From Candidatus Uhrbacteria bacterium RIFOXYB12_FULL_58_10 (lineage in GTDB: Bacteria > Patescibacteriota > Patescibacteriia > UBA9934 > GWF2-40-263): a DNA stretch of 64,000 bases. The notes under the pieces were generated by a model that had not been told where the DNA came from, did no database searches, and was given only the letters and a program-made list of their open reading frames with translations. A program made the translations under genes and the position numbers. Positions 2,554-36,204 of the stretch are shown here, piece by piece. The DNA lies in NCBI GenBank assembly GCA_943354165.1, contig CALRBH010000003.1, positions 5,149-69,148 of the forward strand, in the 5' to 3' direction. The stretch's first letter is position 1. Every line of letters begins with the position of its first letter.

Positions 2554-2975
2554 GAGAAGATCATCGCCTCCTCGCCTTTTTCGTTCTCTGCTTTGTTGTG
2601 ATCATCACAGCGGTTACAGTTGCACTGAATCGCTCCGCCGTGATTCCGACCGTGCCGCTCGATGAGCTTCCCGTCGCTGCGCCGGTGAATGCGGTTGTTC
2701 CAACCGCAGAAGCATGCCAAGCTGCTGGAGGTGCCGTCGCGTATGAACGCGGCTCAGAATGTGTGAGTATCCCAAGCGTGACGGACGCCTGTGACTGGGG
2801 AATCCCCTGTTTCTTTCTGAGAAATGAACCTAATTGTCGCGAGGTTCGCCGTATGTACTGCTCCTGTACGAAGGCATCCCAGTGTCCATCGGGTTACGTG
2901 TGTAACACGTATGGACGCGAGGGGCGTTGCGAATCCATTCCCTCCTATCCTTATGCGCCGAAACCGATCCGTTAA
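2550..2975 (+). CDS. Hypothetical membrane-anchored cysteine-rich small protein
   Basis: ATGA start/stop overlap with the upstream gene. One TM helix followed by a Cys-rich ectodomain. No recognisable family. Confidence 0.4.
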   Translation: MREDHRLLAFFVLCFVVIITAVTVALNRSAVIPTVPLDELPVAAPVNAVVPTAEACQAAGGAVAYERGSECVSIPSVTDACDWGIPCFFLRNEPNCREVRRMYCSCTKASQCPSGYVCNTYGREGRCESIPSYPYAPKPIR

Positions 2976-3786
2976 TAAAATTTGGCTGGTTGTCCCGGTC
3001 ATTATTGCTGTTTGCGTTATCGGCTGGATGAAGCGCGGAGCTTTGATCGATGCGGCCAATGAAGCGGCGAAAACACCACTTCCCCCCGCGGTGAGTTTTG
3101 AGGAGGTCAAAAATCCTCCTCCGATTTCTGTCCCCGTTCCAACTCCACCTCCACCTCCAACTCCTGCTCCAGCCCCAACACCTGCTCCTACGCCCACTCC
3201 TACGCCCGCTCTTCCATCCGAAATCAACCTTGCGGTTCCATTTATCGTCCAAGCCCCGTTCGCCAACTGGGATGAAACCCATGAGGAAACCTGCGAGGAA
3301 GCGTCCGTATACATGGTCGCTCTCTACTACAAGGGCGTGAAGCCGGGTGCGACGAGCGAACAGGCGGCGGAAGACGAACTCCAGAAACTTGTGAAGCTGC
3401 AGGAATCGCTGTTTGGATATTTTGAGGACACGACAGCGAGGGAAACGGCCTTGTTTGCAAAACGACAGTACGCCCTCACGTCACGTCTTCTTGTTGACCC
3501 GACGCTTGAGGAGATCAAGAAGGAGCTTGCCGCTGGGAGGCCTGTCATCGTGCCGGCCGCAGGACAAGAGCTTGGGAATCCGTACTTCACGCCACCCGGC
3601 CCCATCTATCACATGATTGTTCTGCGCGGGTATACCAAGGACGGATTCATTACAAACGATCCAGGGACAAGACGCGGGGAAGGGTTCGTCTACTCCTTCG
3701 ACACCGTCATGAATGCCATTCACGACTGGAATGCGGAGGATATTCAGAAGGGAGGAAGGGTGGTGATCGTTCTAGAAAAGAAATAG
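2953..3786 (+). CDS. Membrane-anchored C39-like peptidase domain protein with Pro/Thr-rich linker
   Basis: Signal-anchor helix, PTPAP-rich linker, then a VQAPFANWDETHEETCEEAS motif resembling Peptidase_C39_2-like domains. Confidence 0.5.
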   Translation: MRRNRSVNKIWLVVPVIIAVCVIGWMKRGALIDAANEAAKTPLPPAVSFEEVKNPPPISVPVPTPPPPPTPAPAPTPAPTPTPTPALPSEINLAVPFIVQAPFANWDETHEETCEEASVYMVALYYKGVKPGATSEQAAEDELQKLVKLQESLFGYFEDTTARETALFAKRQYALTSRLLVDPTLEEIKKELAAGRPVIVPAAGQELGNPYFTPPGPIYHMIVLRGYTKDGFITNDPGTRRGEGFVYSFDTVMNAIHDWNAEDIQKGGRVVIVLEKK

Positions 3787-3873: not shown

Positions 3874-5085
3874 ATGCCCGACCCAGCGGTTCTCTCCGTA
3901 GGCCAATATCTCGAACTAGTAAACGACCGCCTGCGCGAAGCGGCGGCATTTGAGTTTTCCATCGAGGGTGAAGTCTCGGATTTTCGCGTCGCGCAGGGAA
4001 AATGGGTGAGCTTCGATTTGAAGGATGAACTCGCGCAGGCCGTACTCAAATGTTTCATGACCGCCTGGCAGCTTCCGCATAAGGTCGAGGACGGGATGCG
4101 CGTGCGCGTGACGGGAGCCCCGAAAGTGTACGAACGGTTCGGGACATTGAAGCTCAATGTGCAATCGCTCGAGCTGGTGGGCGAAGGCGCGCTGCGCCGG
4201 GCGTATGAGGCGCTCAAGAAAAAGCTCGTTGATGAGGGACTCTTCGATCCTTCGCGCAAGCGCCAGCTCCCGCGCTTTCCCGAGCGCATCGGGCTCATTA
4301 CAAGCCGGGATGCCGCCGCATACGGCGACTTTTTGCGCATTGTGAATAACCGGTGGGGAGGGGCGGAAGTGATGCACGTGTCCGTTCATGTGCAGGGAAA
4401 GGAAGCGGTTCACGAGATCATCGAAGCCTTTCAGTACTTCAACGCGCTCGCTCCGGAGGATCGCCCTGATGCGCTCGTCCTCATTCGCGGCGGCGGCGGG
4501 CTTGAGGATCTCCATGCGTTCAATGATGAAGCTGTGGCGCGTGCGGTATACGGAAGCGCGGTGCCTGTTGTGTGCGGTGTCGGCCACGAACGCGACGAGT
4601 CGCTCTGTGATTTCGTCGCGGACGTGCGCGCGTCTACGCCGAGCAACGCGGCCGAGCGCGTGGTCCCAAGCCGCGAGGACGTCGGCTACGAGATCGCGAT
4701 GACCGAACGTCTGTTCGAGGACCGCATGCGCGAAATGATTGACCGGATGCGCCGGCCTATCGAACGGCTGTCGGCGAGCGCGGAACTTCTTGTGCAAGGG
4801 AAGGCGCTTCGCTTCTCGCAAGTGACGGGCAGTTTCGAAGCCAGCTTCAGCCGGTTCCTTCCGCGCGTGAGCGAACGTCTGCTCGCGAGCGAGCGCGTGC
4901 TGCGTTCCGTAAGTCCGGAGCGCGTTCTCGAACGCGGATACGCGATCGTACGTTCCGGCAAGGGAATCGTCCGCGATACGGGCGCCCTCGACATCGGATC
5001 CGATATTTCTGTACAATTGGCCGAAGGAAGCTTTGAGGCGGAAGTCCAGAGGGTGGAAGGCAAGGGGAAAACGAAATTGTTCTAG
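3874..5085 (+). CDS. xseA: Exodeoxyribonuclease VII large subunit
   Basis: N-terminal OB-fold and catalytic region typical of XseA. 403 aa. Followed directly by xseB. Confidence 0.9.
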   Translation: MPDPAVLSVGQYLELVNDRLREAAAFEFSIEGEVSDFRVAQGKWVSFDLKDELAQAVLKCFMTAWQLPHKVEDGMRVRVTGAPKVYERFGTLKLNVQSLELVGEGALRRAYEALKKKLVDEGLFDPSRKRQLPRFPERIGLITSRDAAAYGDFLRIVNNRWGGAEVMHVSVHVQGKEAVHEIIEAFQYFNALAPEDRPDALVLIRGGGGLEDLHAFNDEAVARAVYGSAVPVVCGVGHERDESLCDFVADVRASTPSNAAERVVPSREDVGYEIAMTERLFEDRMREMIDRMRRPIERLSASAELLVQGKALRFSQVTGSFEASFSRFLPRVSERLLASERVLRSVSPERVLERGYAIVRSGKGIVRDTGALDIGSDISVQLAEGSFEAEVQRVEGKGKTKLF

Positions 5086-24334: not shown

Positions 24335-25120
24335 GTGATCCAACGTATGGACGAACTCCTCAGACATCTCATGCACCTCGGCCTCTCCGAAAAGGAAGCG
24401 GCCGTGTACGTTTCCGCGCTTGAACTCGGTCCTTCCACCGTTCAGGACATTTCGCATAAGGCCAAGGTGAACCGCGCCACCACATACGTGATGATCGAGT
24501 CGCTCGTCGGCCGCGGGCTCATGTCGAGTTTTATAAAAGGAAAGAAGCGGTATTTTTCCGCAGAGTCGCCGGACCGACTTTCCTCGCTCCTGCGTTCCGA
24601 GAAACAGGTGATCATCGAGAAGGAAGACGAACTGCAGAAAGCCCTCCCTATGCTGATGGCCCTTTTCAACGTGGAAGGAGCCAAGCCGCAGATCCGCTAT
24701 CTCGAAGGGCTCGAGGGGAAGGCGAGCGTGCGGGAAATTTTTCTTGGGCTGAAGGGGGAGTACGTCCAAATCGTTCCGCTTGACGACGTTCAGCAGAGGC
24801 CAGAAATCATGGAGACTCGTCCTAAACATATCGCGGACGTTGAGGCACAAGGAGCGTTTCATCGCGCGATTCTTGTGACAAGCGAGCAAGCCGCGGCAAA
24901 TCTCCCGCGCGTAAAAAATGGAGAGGTGCGTTATCTTCCTCCGGACAAGTTCCCTTTGCATGCCGAAATTACCGTCCGTGAAAATCACGTCTTCCTGTTT
25001 TCGTTCAAGTCGGCCACGCTTTCCATCATCATCGTCAGTAAGGAAATTGCGGACGCGGTTCGCATCATGTTTGATCTTGCCTGGCAGGGAGCGTCGGAAT
25101 ATCCCGTTCACAAGGTATAA
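24335..25120 (+). CDS. TrmB-family transcriptional regulator
   Basis: GTG at 24335 (or ATG 24347). N-terminal wHTH (LSEKEAAVYVSALELGPSTVQDISHKAKVNRATTYVMIESL) typical of TrmB. 261 aa. Confidence 0.7.
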   Translation: MIQRMDELLRHLMHLGLSEKEAAVYVSALELGPSTVQDISHKAKVNRATTYVMIESLVGRGLMSSFIKGKKRYFSAESPDRLSSLLRSEKQVIIEKEDELQKALPMLMALFNVEGAKPQIRYLEGLEGKASVREIFLGLKGEYVQIVPLDDVQQRPEIMETRPKHIADVEAQGAFHRAILVTSEQAAANLPRVKNGEVRYLPPDKFPLHAEITVRENHVFLFSFKSATLSIIIVSKEIADAVRIMFDLAWQGASEYPVHKV

Positions 25121-25692: not shown

Positions 25693-25764
25693 TCCCCTTA
25701 AATGAAAACCGACCCCAGAGATTGGGGTCGGGCGGAACACTGGGAGAACCCAGTTTCCTGCGAG

Positions 25765-26301
25765 CTACTTCGTGAAGAACTCCTCCACGTCTTCGGTCGA
25801 GACGATGTCGACCATCGTTGCACGGCTGAGCGCCTTGGCGAAGATGGGCGAGCCCTTCTTTTTCAAGATGCGCAGGTGACGCATGGCTGCGTTGTTCAGT
25901 GCCTCGGGGCGGAAGTCGGCCGACACCAGGAGCACAGGCTCCTTGGTCTCGTCCGAGAGTCGGATGAGGACGTCAAAGCGCTCGTCCTTTTTGTTCAAGT
26001 CGACCCAGAAGGCGGCGGTCTTCAAACGGAGCCTGATTTCCTCCGCGGAGTCGAGTTCGAGGTCACGGAGCAACATCCAACACTGGTGGAGCATCCCCTG
26101 AAATTTGAGCGGGACGCCGTTCGGGATGTCGGGGTGCAGGATGTTTTTCGCGAGCTTCTGCTTCGGCGTCGACGCGGGCTTTTGGGCTTGCGTCTCGAAC
26201 TTCGGCTGCGGCGTGACTGCTTCGGCGGCGCGGATCTCGGCTTGCAGCTCGAGGTTGCTTTCGAACTGAGCGAGGGGGTTCGGGACAGTGGTCGTGGTCA
26301 T
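25765..26301 (-). CDS. Hypothetical protein
   Basis: 178 aa. ATG preceded by aggagag RBS 8 nt upstream. No recognisable family. Confidence 0.55.
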   Translation of the reverse strand: MTTTTVPNPLAQFESNLELQAEIRAAEAVTPQPKFETQAQKPASTPKQKLAKNILHPDIPNGVPLKFQGMLHQCWMLLRDLELDSAEEIRLRLKTAAFWVDLNKKDERFDVLIRLSDETKEPVLLVSADFRPEALNNAAMRHLRILKKKGSPIFAKALSRATMVDIVSTEDVEEFFTK

Positions 26302-26454
26302 GGGACTCTCCTGTATGTGGTCGCATTACTGCGACGTTCTGGATGGCTCATCGGGATGATGGCCAGGTCTGGACGGACGAGCGTGAGCTCATCGTTCCGG
26401 ATCCGGCACGCATCGTTTTTAGGCGATGCGGCGAGAAGAGTTGGTTGTGAGGTT

Positions 26455-26844
26455 CTAGTTGCTCAGGTCGATGCCGACGTTGGCGAAGTCCTGGTAGGCG
26501 CGCGGCAGGTACTCTTGGTACTCGGGCCGTTCGCCTTTCTTGAGGACGCGGGCGATGGCTTCGCGCAGCGTCTCCGGCTTGCCGGTGACGTCGATGCGGA
26601 GCGGGTCGGTGAGGAAGCCGTTGGCCCAGAGGAAGAGCTGCATGTAGCGCTCGTCCACTTTGGCTTGTTCTTCGACGAAGCGGTTGGCGACGTCCTGGAA
26701 CAGGCGGTCGGCAGTCCACTCGCAGAGGTCGGCGACGTGGATTTTCACGGCGATCGCGTAGATCGCGTTGGCGAAGTCTTCGTCGGTGTCGGGGGGCAAG
26801 TTGATGTTGGGTTCGGTGTGGGAAACGAGCTGGAGCATCATCAT
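26455..26844 (-). CDS. Hypothetical protein
   Basis: The C-terminal ~130 aa of the 210-aa ORF look protein-like. Start taken at MMM (26844); the upstream 80 codons look like non-coding read-through. Confidence 0.45.
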   Translation of the reverse strand: MMMLQLVSHTEPNINLPPDTDEDFANAIYAIAVKIHVADLCEWTADRLFQDVANRFVEEQAKVDERYMQLFLWANGFLTDPLRIDVTGKPETLREAIARVLKKGERPEYQEYLPRAYQDFANVGIDLSN

Positions 26845-27414
26845 GTGGAACCTGCTGGGGAACAGTCGCCGGGCGACCGCCGTGGGCACTTTTAGAGTGG
26901 CCAGGTATGAAGGGAAGAGATGTTCTTCCACTCGTATCTGGCCTCTCACTACACGTTGGCAGTGAGAGGCAGAGAAGCACGTGTTCAGCGCTTCTGTTGG
27001 GAACGTTCTGTGTCTGCATGGAGTACTCGGTGGTGATGACCAGTGGGCGCGGTCGGTGTTTGGAAATGGTTGTTGCCCAGCAAGCAATCAACAAGACGTT
27101 CTTATCAATTCTTTGCTAGGCCTGTGTCTCACGACAGCGGGCGAGTTTGGAAGGAAGGATTAGTATGCGATCTTCTTCTGCTGAGGCGGGAGTGCCTCAG
27201 CCTTCTTAATCGCGAGCGGTGTTTCGTACGTTTCAGGTTCGGGAATCTGGAGGGTGATGGCACATTGACCTGGGCAAGCCCTGGTGTGCGCCGTGGACAT
27301 CAGGCATATGGAGCGAGCGAGCCGAAGCCCGGTCAATCCATTTGATGTCCGTCCACTACGACCGAGGCCGCAATGGGGTTCACTCTCTCCCCCAGATTTC
27401 CGAACCCAAATTTG

Positions 27415-27593
27415 GTACAAAAAACCGACGGATGTCTGCACTCGTTTCTGTTAATTGAGTACAGGCATCCGCCGGCTCAGAATCACGTTTAGGTACGATG
27501 ATTCTAGGGATCGGTGAAAAACCAGATACTCTCTCCCGTTATGAAATTGTTTAGCTTCGGGCTTCGTAGTCCCTCGGCCGATGAACATTTCAA
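27415..27593 (-). ncRNA. Candidate sRNA or terminated leader (~180 nt) ending in an intrinsic terminator
   Basis: Minus-strand hairpin cggatgcctgtactc...gagtgcagacatccg followed by T6 (27415-27470). Contains only a 45-codon ORF with no RBS. No riboswitch class recognised. Confidence 0.35.
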
Positions 27594-27599
27594 CGCGCT

Positions 27600-27629
27600 A
27601 TTTATACCACATTTTGGCAACTTTGTCAA
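27600..27629 (-). promoter_or_regulatory. Candidate strong sigma70-like promoter (minus strand: TTGACA-17-TATAAA)
   Basis: Reverse complement reads gctcTTGACAaagttgccaaaatgtggTATAAAtagc. Confidence 0.45.
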
Positions 27630-27677
27630 GAGCTAAGCGAAGTAATTTGGCTGGGTTGGGGCTTGGAAAGTGTACGC

Positions 27678-27755
27678 AGTTAGTAGTCAGTAGAAAGTAG
27701 ATAGTAGAGTTATCCTTCAAAAACTACTAACTACTTTCTACTAACTACTAACTAA
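27678..27755. repeat. AGTAGWW-heptamer palindromic element, copy 5
   Basis: Left arm 27678-27707 (agttagtagtcagtagaaagtagatagtag), right arm 27724-27755. Lies upstream of holB (ATG 27779). This is the only copy not preceded by a plus-strand CDS. Confidence 0.85.
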
Positions 27756-27778
27756 AGATCCCATGCTATACTCCGCCC

Positions 27779-28696
27779 ATGAATCTCTTTTCCACCATCA
27801 TCGGCCATGAGCAGGCCAAATCCATCCTTTCCCGTCAGATGGAGGGAAACCAGCTTTCCCATGCCTATCTGTTTGTAGGCCCAAACGGGGTAGGACGGAC
27901 CACGATGGCCCATGCCCTCATGCGGGATTTTTTAGGCCTCGTCCCAGGGAGCCAGCTTTCGACCCACCCGGATGTCCTTTGTCTTGAGCGTGAGGTCGAT
28001 GAAGATGGAAAGCGTAAAACGGAAATCGTGGTCTCCGACGCCCGCACCTTCGTGGACTGGTTTTCGCTCTCACCCATTATGGGATCGCGCAAGGCAGCCT
28101 TCGTGGAAGAAGCGGAGCGTCTCAATACGTCGGCAGCAAATGCGCTCCTAAAAACCATCGAGGAGCCGAAAGGGGATACGCTTCTCATTCTTCGTGCTCC
28201 GTCGCTCGACGCGCTTCCGCTTACCATCGCCTCCCGTTGTCAGGTGATGCGCTTCGCGCCGGTGCCGATGAAGACGATCGCCGAAGCCGTCGAAAAACGC
28301 GGACTCGATAAAACAGAAGCGGCTTCCATTGCGCAGATGTCCTTGGGTCGCCCAGGACATGCCATTCGGTTCATTACGGACGGCGCCTTTCGCGCGGCCT
28401 ATGAAGTCGCACAGACACGTGTGCGCGAATGGCACACGTTACCGATCTATGCGCGCGTCCGAGCGGTCGCCGATCTTCTCCCAAAGGAAGAAGCCGACAA
28501 ACGCACCGTCCTTGAAGAAACGTTGAGCGGATTGGAACGCGCGGCACGTGCAGAATTAGTACGATGCGTGGAATCGGATCCGCAAGGGGCGCAGCACTGG
28601 AGCCAGGCTCTGACACGTATCCGCGACGCCCGTCTGGCCGCCTCGCATAACGGAAATCCCCAACTGTGTCTCGAACATGCCGTTTTTGCGCTATAA
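27779..28696 (+). CDS. holB: DNA polymerase III delta-prime subunit
   Basis: AAA+ clamp-loader motifs: HAYLFVGPNGVGRTT (P-loop), SRCQVMRF (sensor). Confidence 0.8.
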   Translation: MNLFSTIIGHEQAKSILSRQMEGNQLSHAYLFVGPNGVGRTTMAHALMRDFLGLVPGSQLSTHPDVLCLEREVDEDGKRKTEIVVSDARTFVDWFSLSPIMGSRKAAFVEEAERLNTSAANALLKTIEEPKGDTLLILRAPSLDALPLTIASRCQVMRFAPVPMKTIAEAVEKRGLDKTEAASIAQMSLGRPGHAIRFITDGAFRAAYEVAQTRVREWHTLPIYARVRAVADLLPKEEADKRTVLEETLSGLERAARAELVRCVESDPQGAQHWSQALTRIRDARLAASHNGNPQLCLEHAVFAL

Positions 28697-34763: not shown

Positions 34764-34839
34764 GCCGACATAGCTCAGTTGGTAGAGCGCATCCATGGTA
34801 AGGATGAGGTCATCGGTTCAATCCCGATTGTCGGCTCCA
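34764..34839 (+). tRNA. tRNA-Thr (anticodon GGT)
   Basis: Manual cloverleaf: acceptor gccgaca/tgtcggc, D-stem gctc/gagc, anticodon stem catcc/ggatg, loop atGGTaa, T-loop ttcaatc. CCA encoded. Confidence 0.85.
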
Positions 34840-34925
34840 GGGCAGGTACCCAAGCGGTCAAAGGGGGGAGACTGTAAATCTCTTGGCTTACGCCTACGTG
34901 GGTTCGAACCCCACCCTGCCCACCA
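34840..34925 (+). tRNA. tRNA-Tyr (anticodon GTA), type II with long variable arm
   Basis: Acceptor gggcagg/cctgccc, anticodon loop ctGTAaa, long variable arm, T-arm gggttcgaacccc. CCA encoded. Confidence 0.85.
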
Positions 34926-35011
34926 TCCTTCGCTCCTTGAGAGGAGCTTCGGCTGGCGGAGCCTGGCAGCGAATGCTGCCGCACCGCCGGACGTAGCCTT
35001 AGCGAAGTCCG
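34926..35011 (+). other. Highly structured 86-nt tRNA spacer containing the recurring gctccttgagaggagcttcgg hairpin motif
   Basis: Outer pairing ccttcgct/agcgaagg. Internal hairpins gctcc-ttgag-aggagc and ggcagc-gaat-gctgcc. Confidence 0.4.
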
Positions 35012-35087
35012 GCCGCCTTAGCTCAGCTGGTAGAGCAACAGTTTTGTAAACTGTAGGTCGTCGGTTCAAATCCGACAGGCGGCTCCA
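35012..35087 (+). tRNA. tRNA-Thr (anticodon TGT)
   Basis: Acceptor gccgcct/aggcggc, anticodon stem acagt/actgt, loop ttTGTaa, T-loop ttcaaat. CCA encoded. Confidence 0.85.
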
Positions 35088-35138
35088 TTGACAGAAACCG
35101 GCTGATCCCGTAAGGTTTCGGCAATTCACCTGATATAT

Positions 35139-35294
35139 ATGTCTCAAGATAATCTCATCAAGCTCGAGTGCATCGAGTGCAAGAAGGTTGGGTACAACAC
35201 CCACAAGAACAAGAAGATGCTCAAGGAACGTCTTGAGCTCTCCAAGTTCTGCAAGTGGTGCCGCGCCCACAACAAGCACAAGGAAACCAAATAA
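35139..35294 (+). CDS. rpmG: 50S ribosomal protein L33
   Basis: 51-aa ORF MSQDNLIKLECIECKKVGYNTHKNKKMLKERLELSKFCKWCRAHNKHKETK with the C4 zinc-ribbon pattern of L33. Below the ORF-track size cutoff. Confidence 0.85.
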   Translation: MSQDNLIKLECIECKKVGYNTHKNKKMLKERLELSKFCKWCRAHNKHKETK

Positions 35295-35332
35295 AAAAGA
35301 AGGCCGCCCAGAGAACCTGGGCGGCTTTTTTA
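35295..35332. terminator. Bidirectional intrinsic terminator
   Basis: A-run, hairpin ggccgcccag-agaa-cctgggcggc, then T6. Lies between convergent rpmG and the 35330-36037 (-) gene. Confidence 0.65.
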
Positions 35333-36037
35333 TAGGGAGTGACTCATCATAATGCGGACCGCACTCAAACGCTTTTTCATGGCACTCAAGTTGTGTGGTT
35401 CATGAGGATCCTTATTGACCCAGGAACCAACATGGGTGCTTCGCGCATGTTCGCCGCGACATCGAATAAGGAACAGCCCGTTCGCGAACACGACGTCTGG
35501 GCCGCCGTCCTTCGATTCACGCAGGATTCCGAGCTTGCGTGCCAGTCCCATGCTCGGAAAGCAGGGAAGGATCGGAAGGGATCCGTGGATGGTAATAGGG
35601 ATGGCTTCATCCCACGCGGTCCAGTGCTCGTTGGCAAACACGATGAGCGGAAGCGATTCTTCCAGACAAAATTGGATGAGAGGAAGCGTCAACATGTGCT
35701 GACGCTGCTTGTCATCCAACGGGGATGGAAGGGAATAAAAGGAACTGAAGGAAGCAATGAGACAGAGCGTTTCCTCCTTTCCGCGCTTCATGGGTTCGAT
35801 CAGCGTGCGGATTTCCGTACTCGGCGCAAAAACGAACGGATCATCTAGGAACGTGGGGACATAAATCTTATTCGGTCCCGGGGTCCCGTCAAATTCCTTT
35901 TCGAGGAGGTCGGGCAGGAATGTGACATGGAAAAGAGTATTGAATGTCGCCGTGTCGTCCGGCGGGGTGTCCGGATAGGAAAGATTTGCCGGATCCCCGG
36001 CAGGCGGCCGGGAATCGTTGGTCACAAGTATCTCCAA
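35330..36037 (-). CDS. Hypothetical protein
   Basis: 235-aa ORF with protein-like composition. Its plus-strand shadow ORF looks like junk. No family recognised. Confidence 0.4.
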   Translation of the reverse strand: MEILVTNDSRPPAGDPANLSYPDTPPDDTATFNTLFHVTFLPDLLEKEFDGTPGPNKIYVPTFLDDPFVFAPSTEIRTLIEPMKRGKEETLCLIASFSSFYSLPSPLDDKQRQHMLTLPLIQFCLEESLPLIVFANEHWTAWDEAIPITIHGSLPILPCFPSMGLARKLGILRESKDGGPDVVFANGLFLIRCRGEHARSTHVGSWVNKDPHEPHNLSAMKKRLSAVRIMMSHSL

Positions 36038-36130
36038 GTTGGTGAAGGTCGAATAGTGGTATATTCGGTGGTTTTGTCAATCCATTGCGCTTCACAAAAC
36101 CGAGAGAATCTGGCACACTGCGCCCCGCAG

Positions 36131-36204
36131 AGGGGCGTAGTGAAGTGGTATCACGCGGGTCTCCAAAACCCTCATTGTTGGTTCGATTCCAACCGCCCCT
36201 GCCA
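36131..36204 (+). tRNA. tRNA-Trp (anticodon CCA)
   Basis: Acceptor aggggcg/cgcccct, D-stem gtga/tcac, anticodon loop ctCCAaa, T-arm gttggttcgattccaac. CCA encoded. Confidence 0.8.

Follow-up and report, generated by a model that had tools for sequence, protein, structure and literature searches.

What does the minus strand of Candidatus Uhrbacteria bacterium RIFOXYB12_FULL_58_10 carry between the divergent gene holB and the small hypothetical genes that lie some way behind it? In the window (the whole stretch of 64,000 nt that was analysed, from contig CALRBH010000003.1), the original prediction had placed an 'orphan' unit at 27415–27630, composed of a strong promoter, a structured RNA of ~180 nt and an intrinsic terminator, and had taken it for an independent small RNA (sRNA) or a terminated leader. 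These are still the two leading readings, but the description of the unit was incomplete. The terminated RNA (denoted RNA1) is not the end of the unit; 10 nt past its U-tract begins a second, covarying domain with the fold of a four-way junction (denoted RNA2). The promoter, both RNA domains and the divergent holB recur together in ~15 distinct loci of Candidatus Uhrbacteria and relatives, where the unit heads a cluster of genes on its own strand and is not an orphan. Comparison of these sequences establishes that the unit corresponds to a real, conserved and strand-specific structured RNA. That it represents a new lineage-specific family of cis-acting leader RNAs of the Uhrbacteria and their close relatives, consisting of an attenuator and a junction module, is in our judgement an even chance.

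The promoter (Table 1) has the elements expected for recognition by sigma-70: a −35 box TTGACA, a spacer of 17 ± 1 nt, a TATAAT-like −10 box and the optional TGn. The perfect −35 box, 17-nt spacer and TATAAA first noted are all present, and the −10 box is in addition of the extended type. The pattern TTGACA-N16-18-TATAAW occurs once in the window, compared with 0.02 occurrences expected from dinucleotide shuffles, and a promoter-anchored comparison finds the consensus yTC-TTGACA-N17-TGnTATAnT at the same position in 15 homologous loci. Transcription would be expected to start near 27595. A generic feature scan listed neither the promoter nor the terminator, as its rules demand T at position 6 of the −10 box and a hairpin loop of 3–8 nt. 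Upstream of the −35 box most loci have a palindrome, GCTAA-N3-4-TTAGC (L003, L021, L022, L025, L027, L033, L037, L127, L152, L153 and L154), at a variable offset of roughly 15–45 nt, judged by eye. The window retains only the right half of this palindrome, which is a candidate operator. Further upstream of the promoter, a GTCCAG...TTCCTGACA sequence is common to many loci.

The structured RNA of the original prediction is borne out in size and in fold. RNA1 (folded as 27596–27412) has a minimum free energy (MFE) of −63.2 kcal/mol, with z = −4.7 against dinucleotide shuffles, and the opposite strand folds more weakly (z = −3.8). From its 5′ end RNA1 is made up of a nested hairpin with a yCGAAG apical loop (27592–27542), ACAA, the purine element GGGAGAGAGU, a middle hairpin (27506–27478) and the terminator hairpin with its U-tract. 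Homologues were identified by nhmmer in L021 (E = 8e-30), L003, L023, L025, L027 and L031. Five parts are common to the loci: a 5′ hairpin domain, ACAA, GGGAGAGAG(U), a set of variable hairpins or pseudoknots, and a hairpin of 19–25 bp followed by a U-run. The yCGAAG loop belongs to the clade of the window, and the stems of the 5′ domain vary between loci (GGG/CCC, CCG/CGG, GCG/CGC, CAGGG/CCCUG). Alignment of this domain with MAFFT and RNAalifold failed, and its helices rest on folds of the individual sequences and on inspection. No protein appears to be encoded, in agreement with the earlier view that the region holds no credible coding sequence: the 45-aa open reading frame (ORF) inside RNA1 (27588–27451) is not conserved, has no Pfam match and is interrupted by TGA at codon 5 in the closest homologue, L021. 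The small-protein reading was rejected on this interruption and on the finding that no ORF consistently follows the GGAGAGAG elements, which are therefore not Shine-Dalgarno sites for leader peptides.

The terminator is likewise as first described, with coordinates slightly refined. Its stem in the window has 19 bp with one mismatch and is followed by U6; the calculated energy is −34.0 kcal/mol for the 80-nt tail and −30.2 kcal/mol for a shorter segment. Hairpin and U-run are kept in 15/15 loci, with hairpin energies of −21 to −50 kcal/mol. About ten loci have 4–6 uninterrupted U, the rest of the 15 having interrupted runs (UUUCUGUUUUU, UUUUCGUUU), and compensatory changes are seen at 16 of the 20 pairs of the stem. 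The anatomy of RNA1 as a unit reaching from a predicted promoter to a predicted intrinsic terminator is established by these comparisons.

RNA2 is the more stable of the two domains, with an MFE of −93.8 kcal/mol (z = −6.2) and an MFE structure that accounts for 22% of the ensemble. It consists of a closing stem P1 of 17–22 bp, a junction element GGGAGAGAGU (27391–27382), a variable P2, P3, P4 and the return strand of P1. Across the loci P1 is CUGGAG...CUCCAG extended to its full length, and the junction strand is GGAGAGAGU. P3 has two conserved internal loops, AUCAAAUGG..UUGACC / CUC..CCAUAUGCCUGAU, and P4, CACACCAG..GGUCAAUG, is of two types, short and long; P2 is missing in one copy. A MAFFT alignment of 16 copies yields 40 consensus pairs in RNAalifold, with compensatory changes at 31. 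The covariance model built for RNA2 (R1) scores the window at 149 bits (E = 1e-40), finds a single copy in the 64 kb and retrieves in total 21 distinct copies from 14 sources (the window and 13 loci), one of which, at 42 bits, was outside the training set. In the model-based alignment 93.2% of cells are paired, compared with 73.0% in column shuffles (0/500); both partners change in 33 of the 40 pairs, and sliding the 3′ partners by 1–3 columns reduces pairing to 37–50%. The short type of P4, aligned separately, shows compensatory changes at 8 of 12 pairs. Many pairs are G-U, one of them in 21/21 copies, and R1 scores ~120 bits lower on the opposite strand; both observations place the RNA2 fold on the strand that the promoter would transcribe.

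These data bear on the possibility that the element acts as DNA, as a miniature inverted-repeat transposable element (MITE) or a recombination site of the integron attC type. P1 would then be a pair of long terminal inverted repeats, and the repeated copies do lie between variable orphan ORFs behind one strong promoter. However, there is one copy in 64 kb and one syntenic locus, the copies within a genome have diverged with compensatory changes and invariant G-U pairs, and the score depends strongly on the strand. No integrase or transposase gene was seen, and a scan of viral contigs gave 0 copies of the element. A MITE or a repetitive extragenic palindromic (REP) sequence was rejected on the single copy and on the compensated divergence of copies within a locus. 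An attC site was rejected as well: the P1 ends lack the R''/R' cores (GTTRRRY), the fold is a four-way junction and not a simple hairpin, and an integrase is missing, the neighbours being holB and a TrmB-family gene. We hold a DNA-level element to be extremely improbable.

The window genes holB, BNR-repeat, frr, glyS and M16 peptidase are closest to those of Candidatus Uhrbacteria, a member of the Patescibacteria or candidate phyla radiation (CPR). The gene order, TrmB-family gene (+), minus-strand hypotheticals, noncoding unit (−), holB-BNR-frr-glyS-M16 (+), is kept in every related contig retrieved, with protein identities for holB of 34–63% across the loci. A search by nhmmer with the noncoding region of the window gave a match in the Uhrbacteria metagenome-assembled genome L003 (38% holB identity) and further matches in L021, L022, L023/24, L025/26, L027, L031/32 and L033/34; L029/30 was recognised by eye. 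Units upstream of holB and divergent from it are found in L003, L021–L034, L037, L127, L148, L152 and L154, and two named Uhrbacteria assemblies, GCA_026395055.1 and GCA_001791715.1, have the unit. A divergent form is present in L068. A reduced form occurs in L153 (GCA_028710985.1, more distant Patescibacteria with the same synteny), where the promoter is followed by a short RNA1 that retains motif and terminator, and RNA2 is missing. In metagenomes a first pattern, which was too strict, gave 0 matches; a second, degenerate pattern gave 117 stretches, mostly GA-rich chance matches, of which six proved real by nhmmer and correspond to three distinct sequences (L037 = L071, L127 = L134 = L150, and L148). 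The AT-rich L068 was recognised later, and L082 was discarded as a GC-rich false positive of the covariance model.

In most loci RNA2 begins 5–25 nt past the U-run of RNA1 (the spacer of L025 holds an inserted hairpin). The 10 nt of the window leave no room for a promoter of its own, so that RNA2 would be made only by read-through. Each locus has 1–3 copies, in tandem (L003, L037) or dispersed (three in L033, two each in L127, L152 and L154), and each copy is upstream of ORFs on the same strand, one or more of which follow RNA2 with good Shine-Dalgarno sequences. The distance of ~570 nt to the nearest minus-strand genes given in the original prediction is correct as a measurement, the first gene starting at 26844, 575 nt past the U-tract; the gap is not empty, as it holds RNA2, the better-supported half of the element.

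A covarying, conserved RNA that is always upstream of same-strand ORFs is what is generally looked for in a riboswitch. RNA2, possibly together with RNA1, could be a new metabolite- or ion-sensing riboswitch in which the junction is the aptamer and repeated copies give a sharper or gene-by-gene response. The high conservation of the junction and internal loops between covarying helices, the sense-strand positions in 5′ untranslated regions (5′-UTRs) or between cistrons, the tandem copies and the coupling of a conserved element to a terminator in RNA1 are all consistent with this. Against it, P1 with its 17–22 bp is too stable for its formation to depend on a ligand, RNA2 has no recognisable expression platform, and the downstream genes are unrelated orphans without the signature of a transporter or an enzyme. 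The earlier statement that no known riboswitch matches also stands, since the Rfam scans returned no riboswitch family. We consider such a riboswitch distinctly unlikely.

RNA2 has what we take to be a likeness to one known class, the yybP-ykoY Mn2+ riboswitch (RF00080), in its four-helix junction, in the GA-rich strand near the closing stem (GGAGAGAGU in RNA2, GGGGAGUAG in yybP-ykoY) and in a UUGAC loop in the third helix. The assignment failed on the model and on the associated genes: RF00080 has no match at E <= 5-10 on the RNA2 copies of 8 sources (the window and 7 loci), and no genes for a Mn2+ exporter, TerC or a P-type ATPase are found downstream of RNA2. P1 is moreover much longer than in yybP-ykoY. 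In the reverse direction R1 gives <= 8.8 bits on the mntP leader of E. coli MG1655 (L155 7200–7700), a cross-check limited by the fact that the Rfam gathering scan missed that leader too, although the mntP 5′-UTR would presumably contain a yybP-ykoY match.

A multi-helix junction with strictly conserved unpaired nucleotides, in tandem or repeated copies beside hypothetical genes, could also indicate a new class of self-cleaving ribozyme. Twister, twister-sister and hatchet ribozymes are known for repeated copies next to hypothetical genes. The element described here, however, occurs at a single chromosomal locus, shows no candidate signature of a cleavage site and matches no Rfam ribozyme, which makes this reading highly improbable.

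The modules may otherwise be signals for RNA processing (RNase III sites that would divide a polycistronic transcript into stable fragments) or for elongation (resistance of RNA polymerase to terminators over the length of the cluster, of the EAR or put type). Stems of 17–30 bp flank each module (P1, terminator, AT-rich hairpins), the modules recur between genes of one cluster, and the terminator lies inside the transcription unit. Simple processing stems would not, however, require RNA2 to keep the sequences of its junction and loops. EAR (Bacillus eps operons) and put (phage HK022) resemble the present unit as structured RNAs in or ahead of a long operon with terminators, but there is no similarity in sequence or to the Rfam models, and RNA2 is larger and has a four-way junction. 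We regard processing or elongation signals as very unlikely.

Scans for known RNAs gave nothing that would account for the unit. The Rfam 15 gathering scan of the window returned 4 tRNAs only. Permissive Rfam scans of the homologous regions (L003, and 7 loci jointly) gave no match. A covariance scan of 27000–28000 returned no housekeeping RNA, the only hits being weak, chance-level microRNA (miRNA)-like matches on the AT-rich hairpin next to the promoter. ARAGORN found no transfer-messenger RNA (tmRNA), and signatures of RNase P, signal recognition particle (SRP) RNA, 6S RNA and tmRNA are absent by inspection. 6S RNA, a rod of ~180 nt with a central bubble, was considered and rejected: RNA1 has an MFE structure of several separate hairpins, RNA2 folds into a four-way junction, and the 6S model of Rfam did not match. 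The family is absent from Rfam 15, and no description of it was found in the literature searched. The tRNAs of the window form a cluster at 34764–36204 (+), with Thr-GGU, Tyr-GUA, Thr-UGU and Trp-CCA.

RNA1 and RNA2 have a purine element in common. The decamer GGGAGAGAGT has 2 copies in the window (27537–27528 in RNA1, 27391–27382 in RNA2), compared with 0.16 expected. In RNA1 the element, GGGAGAGAG, is often displayed in the loop of a mini-hairpin of 2–6 bp, whereas in RNA2 it joins P1 to P2. The RNA2 of the divergent L068 is cut down to P1 and the element, which is present 4–5 times. The element looks like a common recognition feature of the RNA family. In RNA1 it also has a complement in the terminator hairpin, in pyrimidine-rich sequence (such as UCUCUC or CUUUCUC) of the apical loop or of the upper part of the 5′ arm; the apex of the window is GUACUC (27462–27457). 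Over the whole of RNA1, the terminator apex is the best partner of the element in 10/15 loci and the second best in most others, and the cognate duplexes have a mean energy of −14.0 kcal/mol, compared with −8.5 kcal/mol (standard deviation 3.2) for shuffled apices. Pairing was judged by duplex energies, a column-based test having been dropped for register shifts between loci. By eye, variant elements are accompanied by matching variant apices in L022 (GAGAGUGC/GCACUCUU), L021 (GAGUACGG/CCGUACUU), L033 (UUGGGAGA/UUUCCCAA) and L153 (GAGGAGA/UCUCCUC). We have moderate confidence that the contact between element and terminator is real, as a kissing loop, a pseudoknot or a partial antiterminator.

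As a cis-acting leader the unit would work in two steps. A near-consensus, probably regulated promoter would drive RNA1, and transcripts that escape the RNA1 terminator would enter RNA2 and then the orphan gene cluster. A trans factor, a protein or a small ligand, would recognise GGAGAGAG and the folded junction, and would set passage past the terminator as well as stability, processing or translation of the downstream mRNA. RNA1 would thereby determine the amount of read-through, while RNA2 would act on the downstream mRNA. Transcription, read-through, a functional contact between motif and terminator, and the existence and identity of the factor are what we infer. In favour of the scheme are the conserved and covarying folds, the lack of room for a separate RNA2 promoter, the location of every RNA2 copy ahead of ORFs on its own strand, the complementarity of element and apex, and the palindrome ahead of the promoter together with the TrmB-family gene at the other end of the cluster. 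The scheme resembles attenuation leaders and terminator riboswitches (the pyr leader with PyrR, the T-box) in having a promoter, a conserved leader, a hairpin with U-tract and genes on the same strand, and in that the purine element GGGAGAGAG, GA-rich like the PyrR site, has a complement within the terminator hairpin. The present unit differs in that its terminator stem of 19–25 bp is probably not switchable by a complement of 6–8 bp, in the orphan nature of the genes that would be regulated and in the second, junction domain past the terminator.

Several observations weigh against a cis-acting leader. RNA2 and the first credible ORF of the window are 390 nt apart, and RNA2 has no recognisable expression platform through which it could act on a ribosome-binding site. 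Different loci have different downstream proteins, so that no conserved regulated function points to a signal. The advantage of cognate over non-cognate pairing between element and apex is small (−14.0 against −11.8 kcal/mol), and the pairing of the window itself is among the weakest (−10.1 kcal/mol). The terminators and P1 are far more stable than the usual switching helices, and a competitor of 8 bp is unlikely to open them; such stabilities are easier to reconcile with a kissing or pseudoknot contact, or with partial termination that is constitutive, than with antitermination of the classical kind. This extreme stability argues against a textbook riboswitch mechanism and leaves room for RNA1 as an sRNA.

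RNA1 could then be an independent, abundant and trans-acting sRNA, perhaps bound at GGAGAGAG by an Hfq- or CsrA-like protein, and RNA2 a separate stable RNA arising from read-through, neither of them regulating its neighbours in cis. RNA1 is a complete promoter-to-terminator unit in 15 loci and is retained in L153, which lacks RNA2. Termination at hairpins of such stability would seem to be efficient, and the RNA is conserved far more than the downstream proteins. Hfq-binding sRNAs and the CsrB/RsmZ sponges are likewise stand-alone units that end in a U-tail and have several copies of a short purine motif, often displayed in small loops, and GAGAGAG here is often in the loop of a mini-hairpin (2–6 bp), 4–5 times in L068, like the sites of a protein sponge. 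An (AG)n tract is the B. subtilis Hfq motif, (AG)3A, derived from systematic evolution of ligands by exponential enrichment (SELEX) (PMC3287200). The U-tail and a (GA)n element are both present in RNA1, the combination of (AG)n and U-tailed terminator that Gram-positive-type Hfq binds (PMC3287200). In most loci, however, there are 1–2 motif copies per RNA, and the unit is fused to a downstream mRNA. RNA2 lies within 5–25 nt of the U-tract in nearly all loci and has no promoter, so some read-through would have to occur, and without exception its copies precede ORFs of the same orientation. Neither hfq nor csrA turned up in the window or in the Uhrbacteria loci, sequence that covers a small fraction of each genome. 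An independent sRNA is possible, though in our estimate rather unlikely.

Table 1. Features of the RNA1–RNA2 locus and its neighbours, in window coordinates.
Feature	Position	Strand	Details
TrmB-family transcription regulator gene	24335..25120	+	Pfam PF01978, E = 7e-13; convergent, at the far end of the cluster
Second downstream gene, 178 aa, all-helical orphan family	25765..26301	-	exhaustive HMMER, AlphaFold2 (AF2) model
First credible downstream gene, 129 aa	26455..26844	-	paralogue of the second downstream gene; no Pfam/PHROG match
RNA2, 177-nt four-way junction	27233..27409	-	fold, covariance model R1, covariation
Intrinsic-terminator-like hairpin and U6	27419..27477	-	stem 27475-27457 / 27443-27425, 13-nt loop, U6 27424-27419
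RNA1, ~177 nt	27419..27595	-	fold, nhmmer homologues, architecture in 15 loci
GGGAGAGAGU element of RNA1	27528..27537	-	near-invariant across loci
Sigma-70-type promoter	27601..27629	-	TTGACA 27629-27624, 17-nt spacer, extended -10 TGgTATAAA 27609-27601
Upstream conserved element CCCAGCCAAAT	27641..27655	-	right half of GCTAA-N3-4-TTAGC palindrome; comparison of 15 loci
AT-rich inverted repeat I1	27678..27753	.	30 bp, 93% complementary; between holB start (27779) and RNA promoter
holB (DNA polymerase III delta')	27779..28696	+	Pfam PF13177, E = 3e-32; divergent neighbour, synteny anchor

The genes behind RNA2 give little guidance to function. The 129-aa and 178-aa proteins of the window are paralogues by alignment and form a small, all-helical, lineage-specific orphan family. 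An exhaustive HMMER search among 1.84 billion representative proteins found 3 relatives of the 178-aa family, and a word-index protein search returned the query protein itself only. The AF2 model of the 178-aa protein (predicted local distance difference test score, pLDDT, 74) has no fold match in the PDB, the downstream proteins have no match in Pfam or PHROGs, and tblastx of the window against L003 gave low-complexity matches only. Other loci have different orphan proteins and small hydrophobic peptides downstream, which all-versus-all BLAST resolves into small, patchy families; the RNA is far better conserved. A public gene call (90-kb metagenome scaffold ENA ERZ28613056) places a 397-aa ORF without Pfam match on the plus strand at 25702–26895, antisense to both genes. 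It is probably spurious, since the antisense minus-strand genes have real homologues. The same region has a strong strand composition bias, with a GC skew of up to +0.25. Beyond the cluster, the TrmB-family gene is found at the same place in L001, L022, L153 and the P0003 contig, the loci whose flanks reach that far.

Several further features were seen around the unit. The AT-rich inverted repeat between holB and the promoter is made of AGTTAGTAG-like units, and comparable long AT-rich hairpins are found ahead of the second RNA2 copies of L127 (~2090–2234) and L152 (~2050–2130); the repeat of the window may be an insulator or a bidirectional terminator. A small hairpin, (A)ACGAAGCUCCGCAAGGAGC(A/G)AAGUGGGG, is found as an insertion at different sites where RNA2 tolerates it, in the P3 loop and ahead of the return strand of P1, as well as in the spacer between RNA1 and RNA2 (L025 ~3480–3510 and ~3590–3620, L027 ~2850–2890, L029 ~2960–3000), and looks like a miniature mobile repeat of these genomes. 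In L153 a 45-nt hairpin, AACAUCCUGGCGGAUCACGCAAGUGGUCAAUCAAGAUGUU, is present twice on the minus strand (~4700–4745 and ~4010–4055), on either side of the ORF that comes first behind the RNA1 terminator, and may represent a reduced module or an alternative to it. L127 has two successive small ORFs at ~4130–4260 (−), each behind the same block of ~35 nt with a hairpin and a Shine-Dalgarno sequence (CCCAGACGCGArCCAyCGAGUUCGCACGGAG), a repetition that points to local duplication of a translation-initiation cassette. On the other side of the unit, a gene at 4926–5294 of L026 (Uhrbacteria assembly GCA_001791725.1), inserted between holB and the BNR-repeat gene, encodes a 23S rRNA intervening-sequence protein domain (PF05635); the near-identical contig L025 lacks this gene.

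The Patescibacteria, or CPR, make up a large share of bacterial diversity, and to our knowledge almost nothing is known of gene regulation in them; no description of native structured regulatory RNAs of the group was found in the literature searched. The locus described here presents an RNA family supported by covariation, with a defined promoter and terminator, a candidate recognition element common to both domains and a modular junction; its place in the chromosome is constant, and the genes behind it evolve too quickly for annotation. The boldest reading, that RNA2 is a new ligand-sensing riboswitch or catalytic RNA class confined to the CPR and that it works with the RNA1 attenuator to control a fast-evolving cluster, possibly concerned with host interaction, seems to us unlikely on balance. 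If it were true, RNA2 as sensor or catalyst would be one of the first natural classes of regulatory RNA described specifically for Patescibacteria. The locus raises the questions of which signal or factor gates lineage-specific genes in an ultrasmall episymbiont, and of whether a domain closed by a stem of 17–22 bp is there to sense, to bind proteins or to mark the RNA for processing. Run across all CPR genomes, the covariance model could map the regulon.

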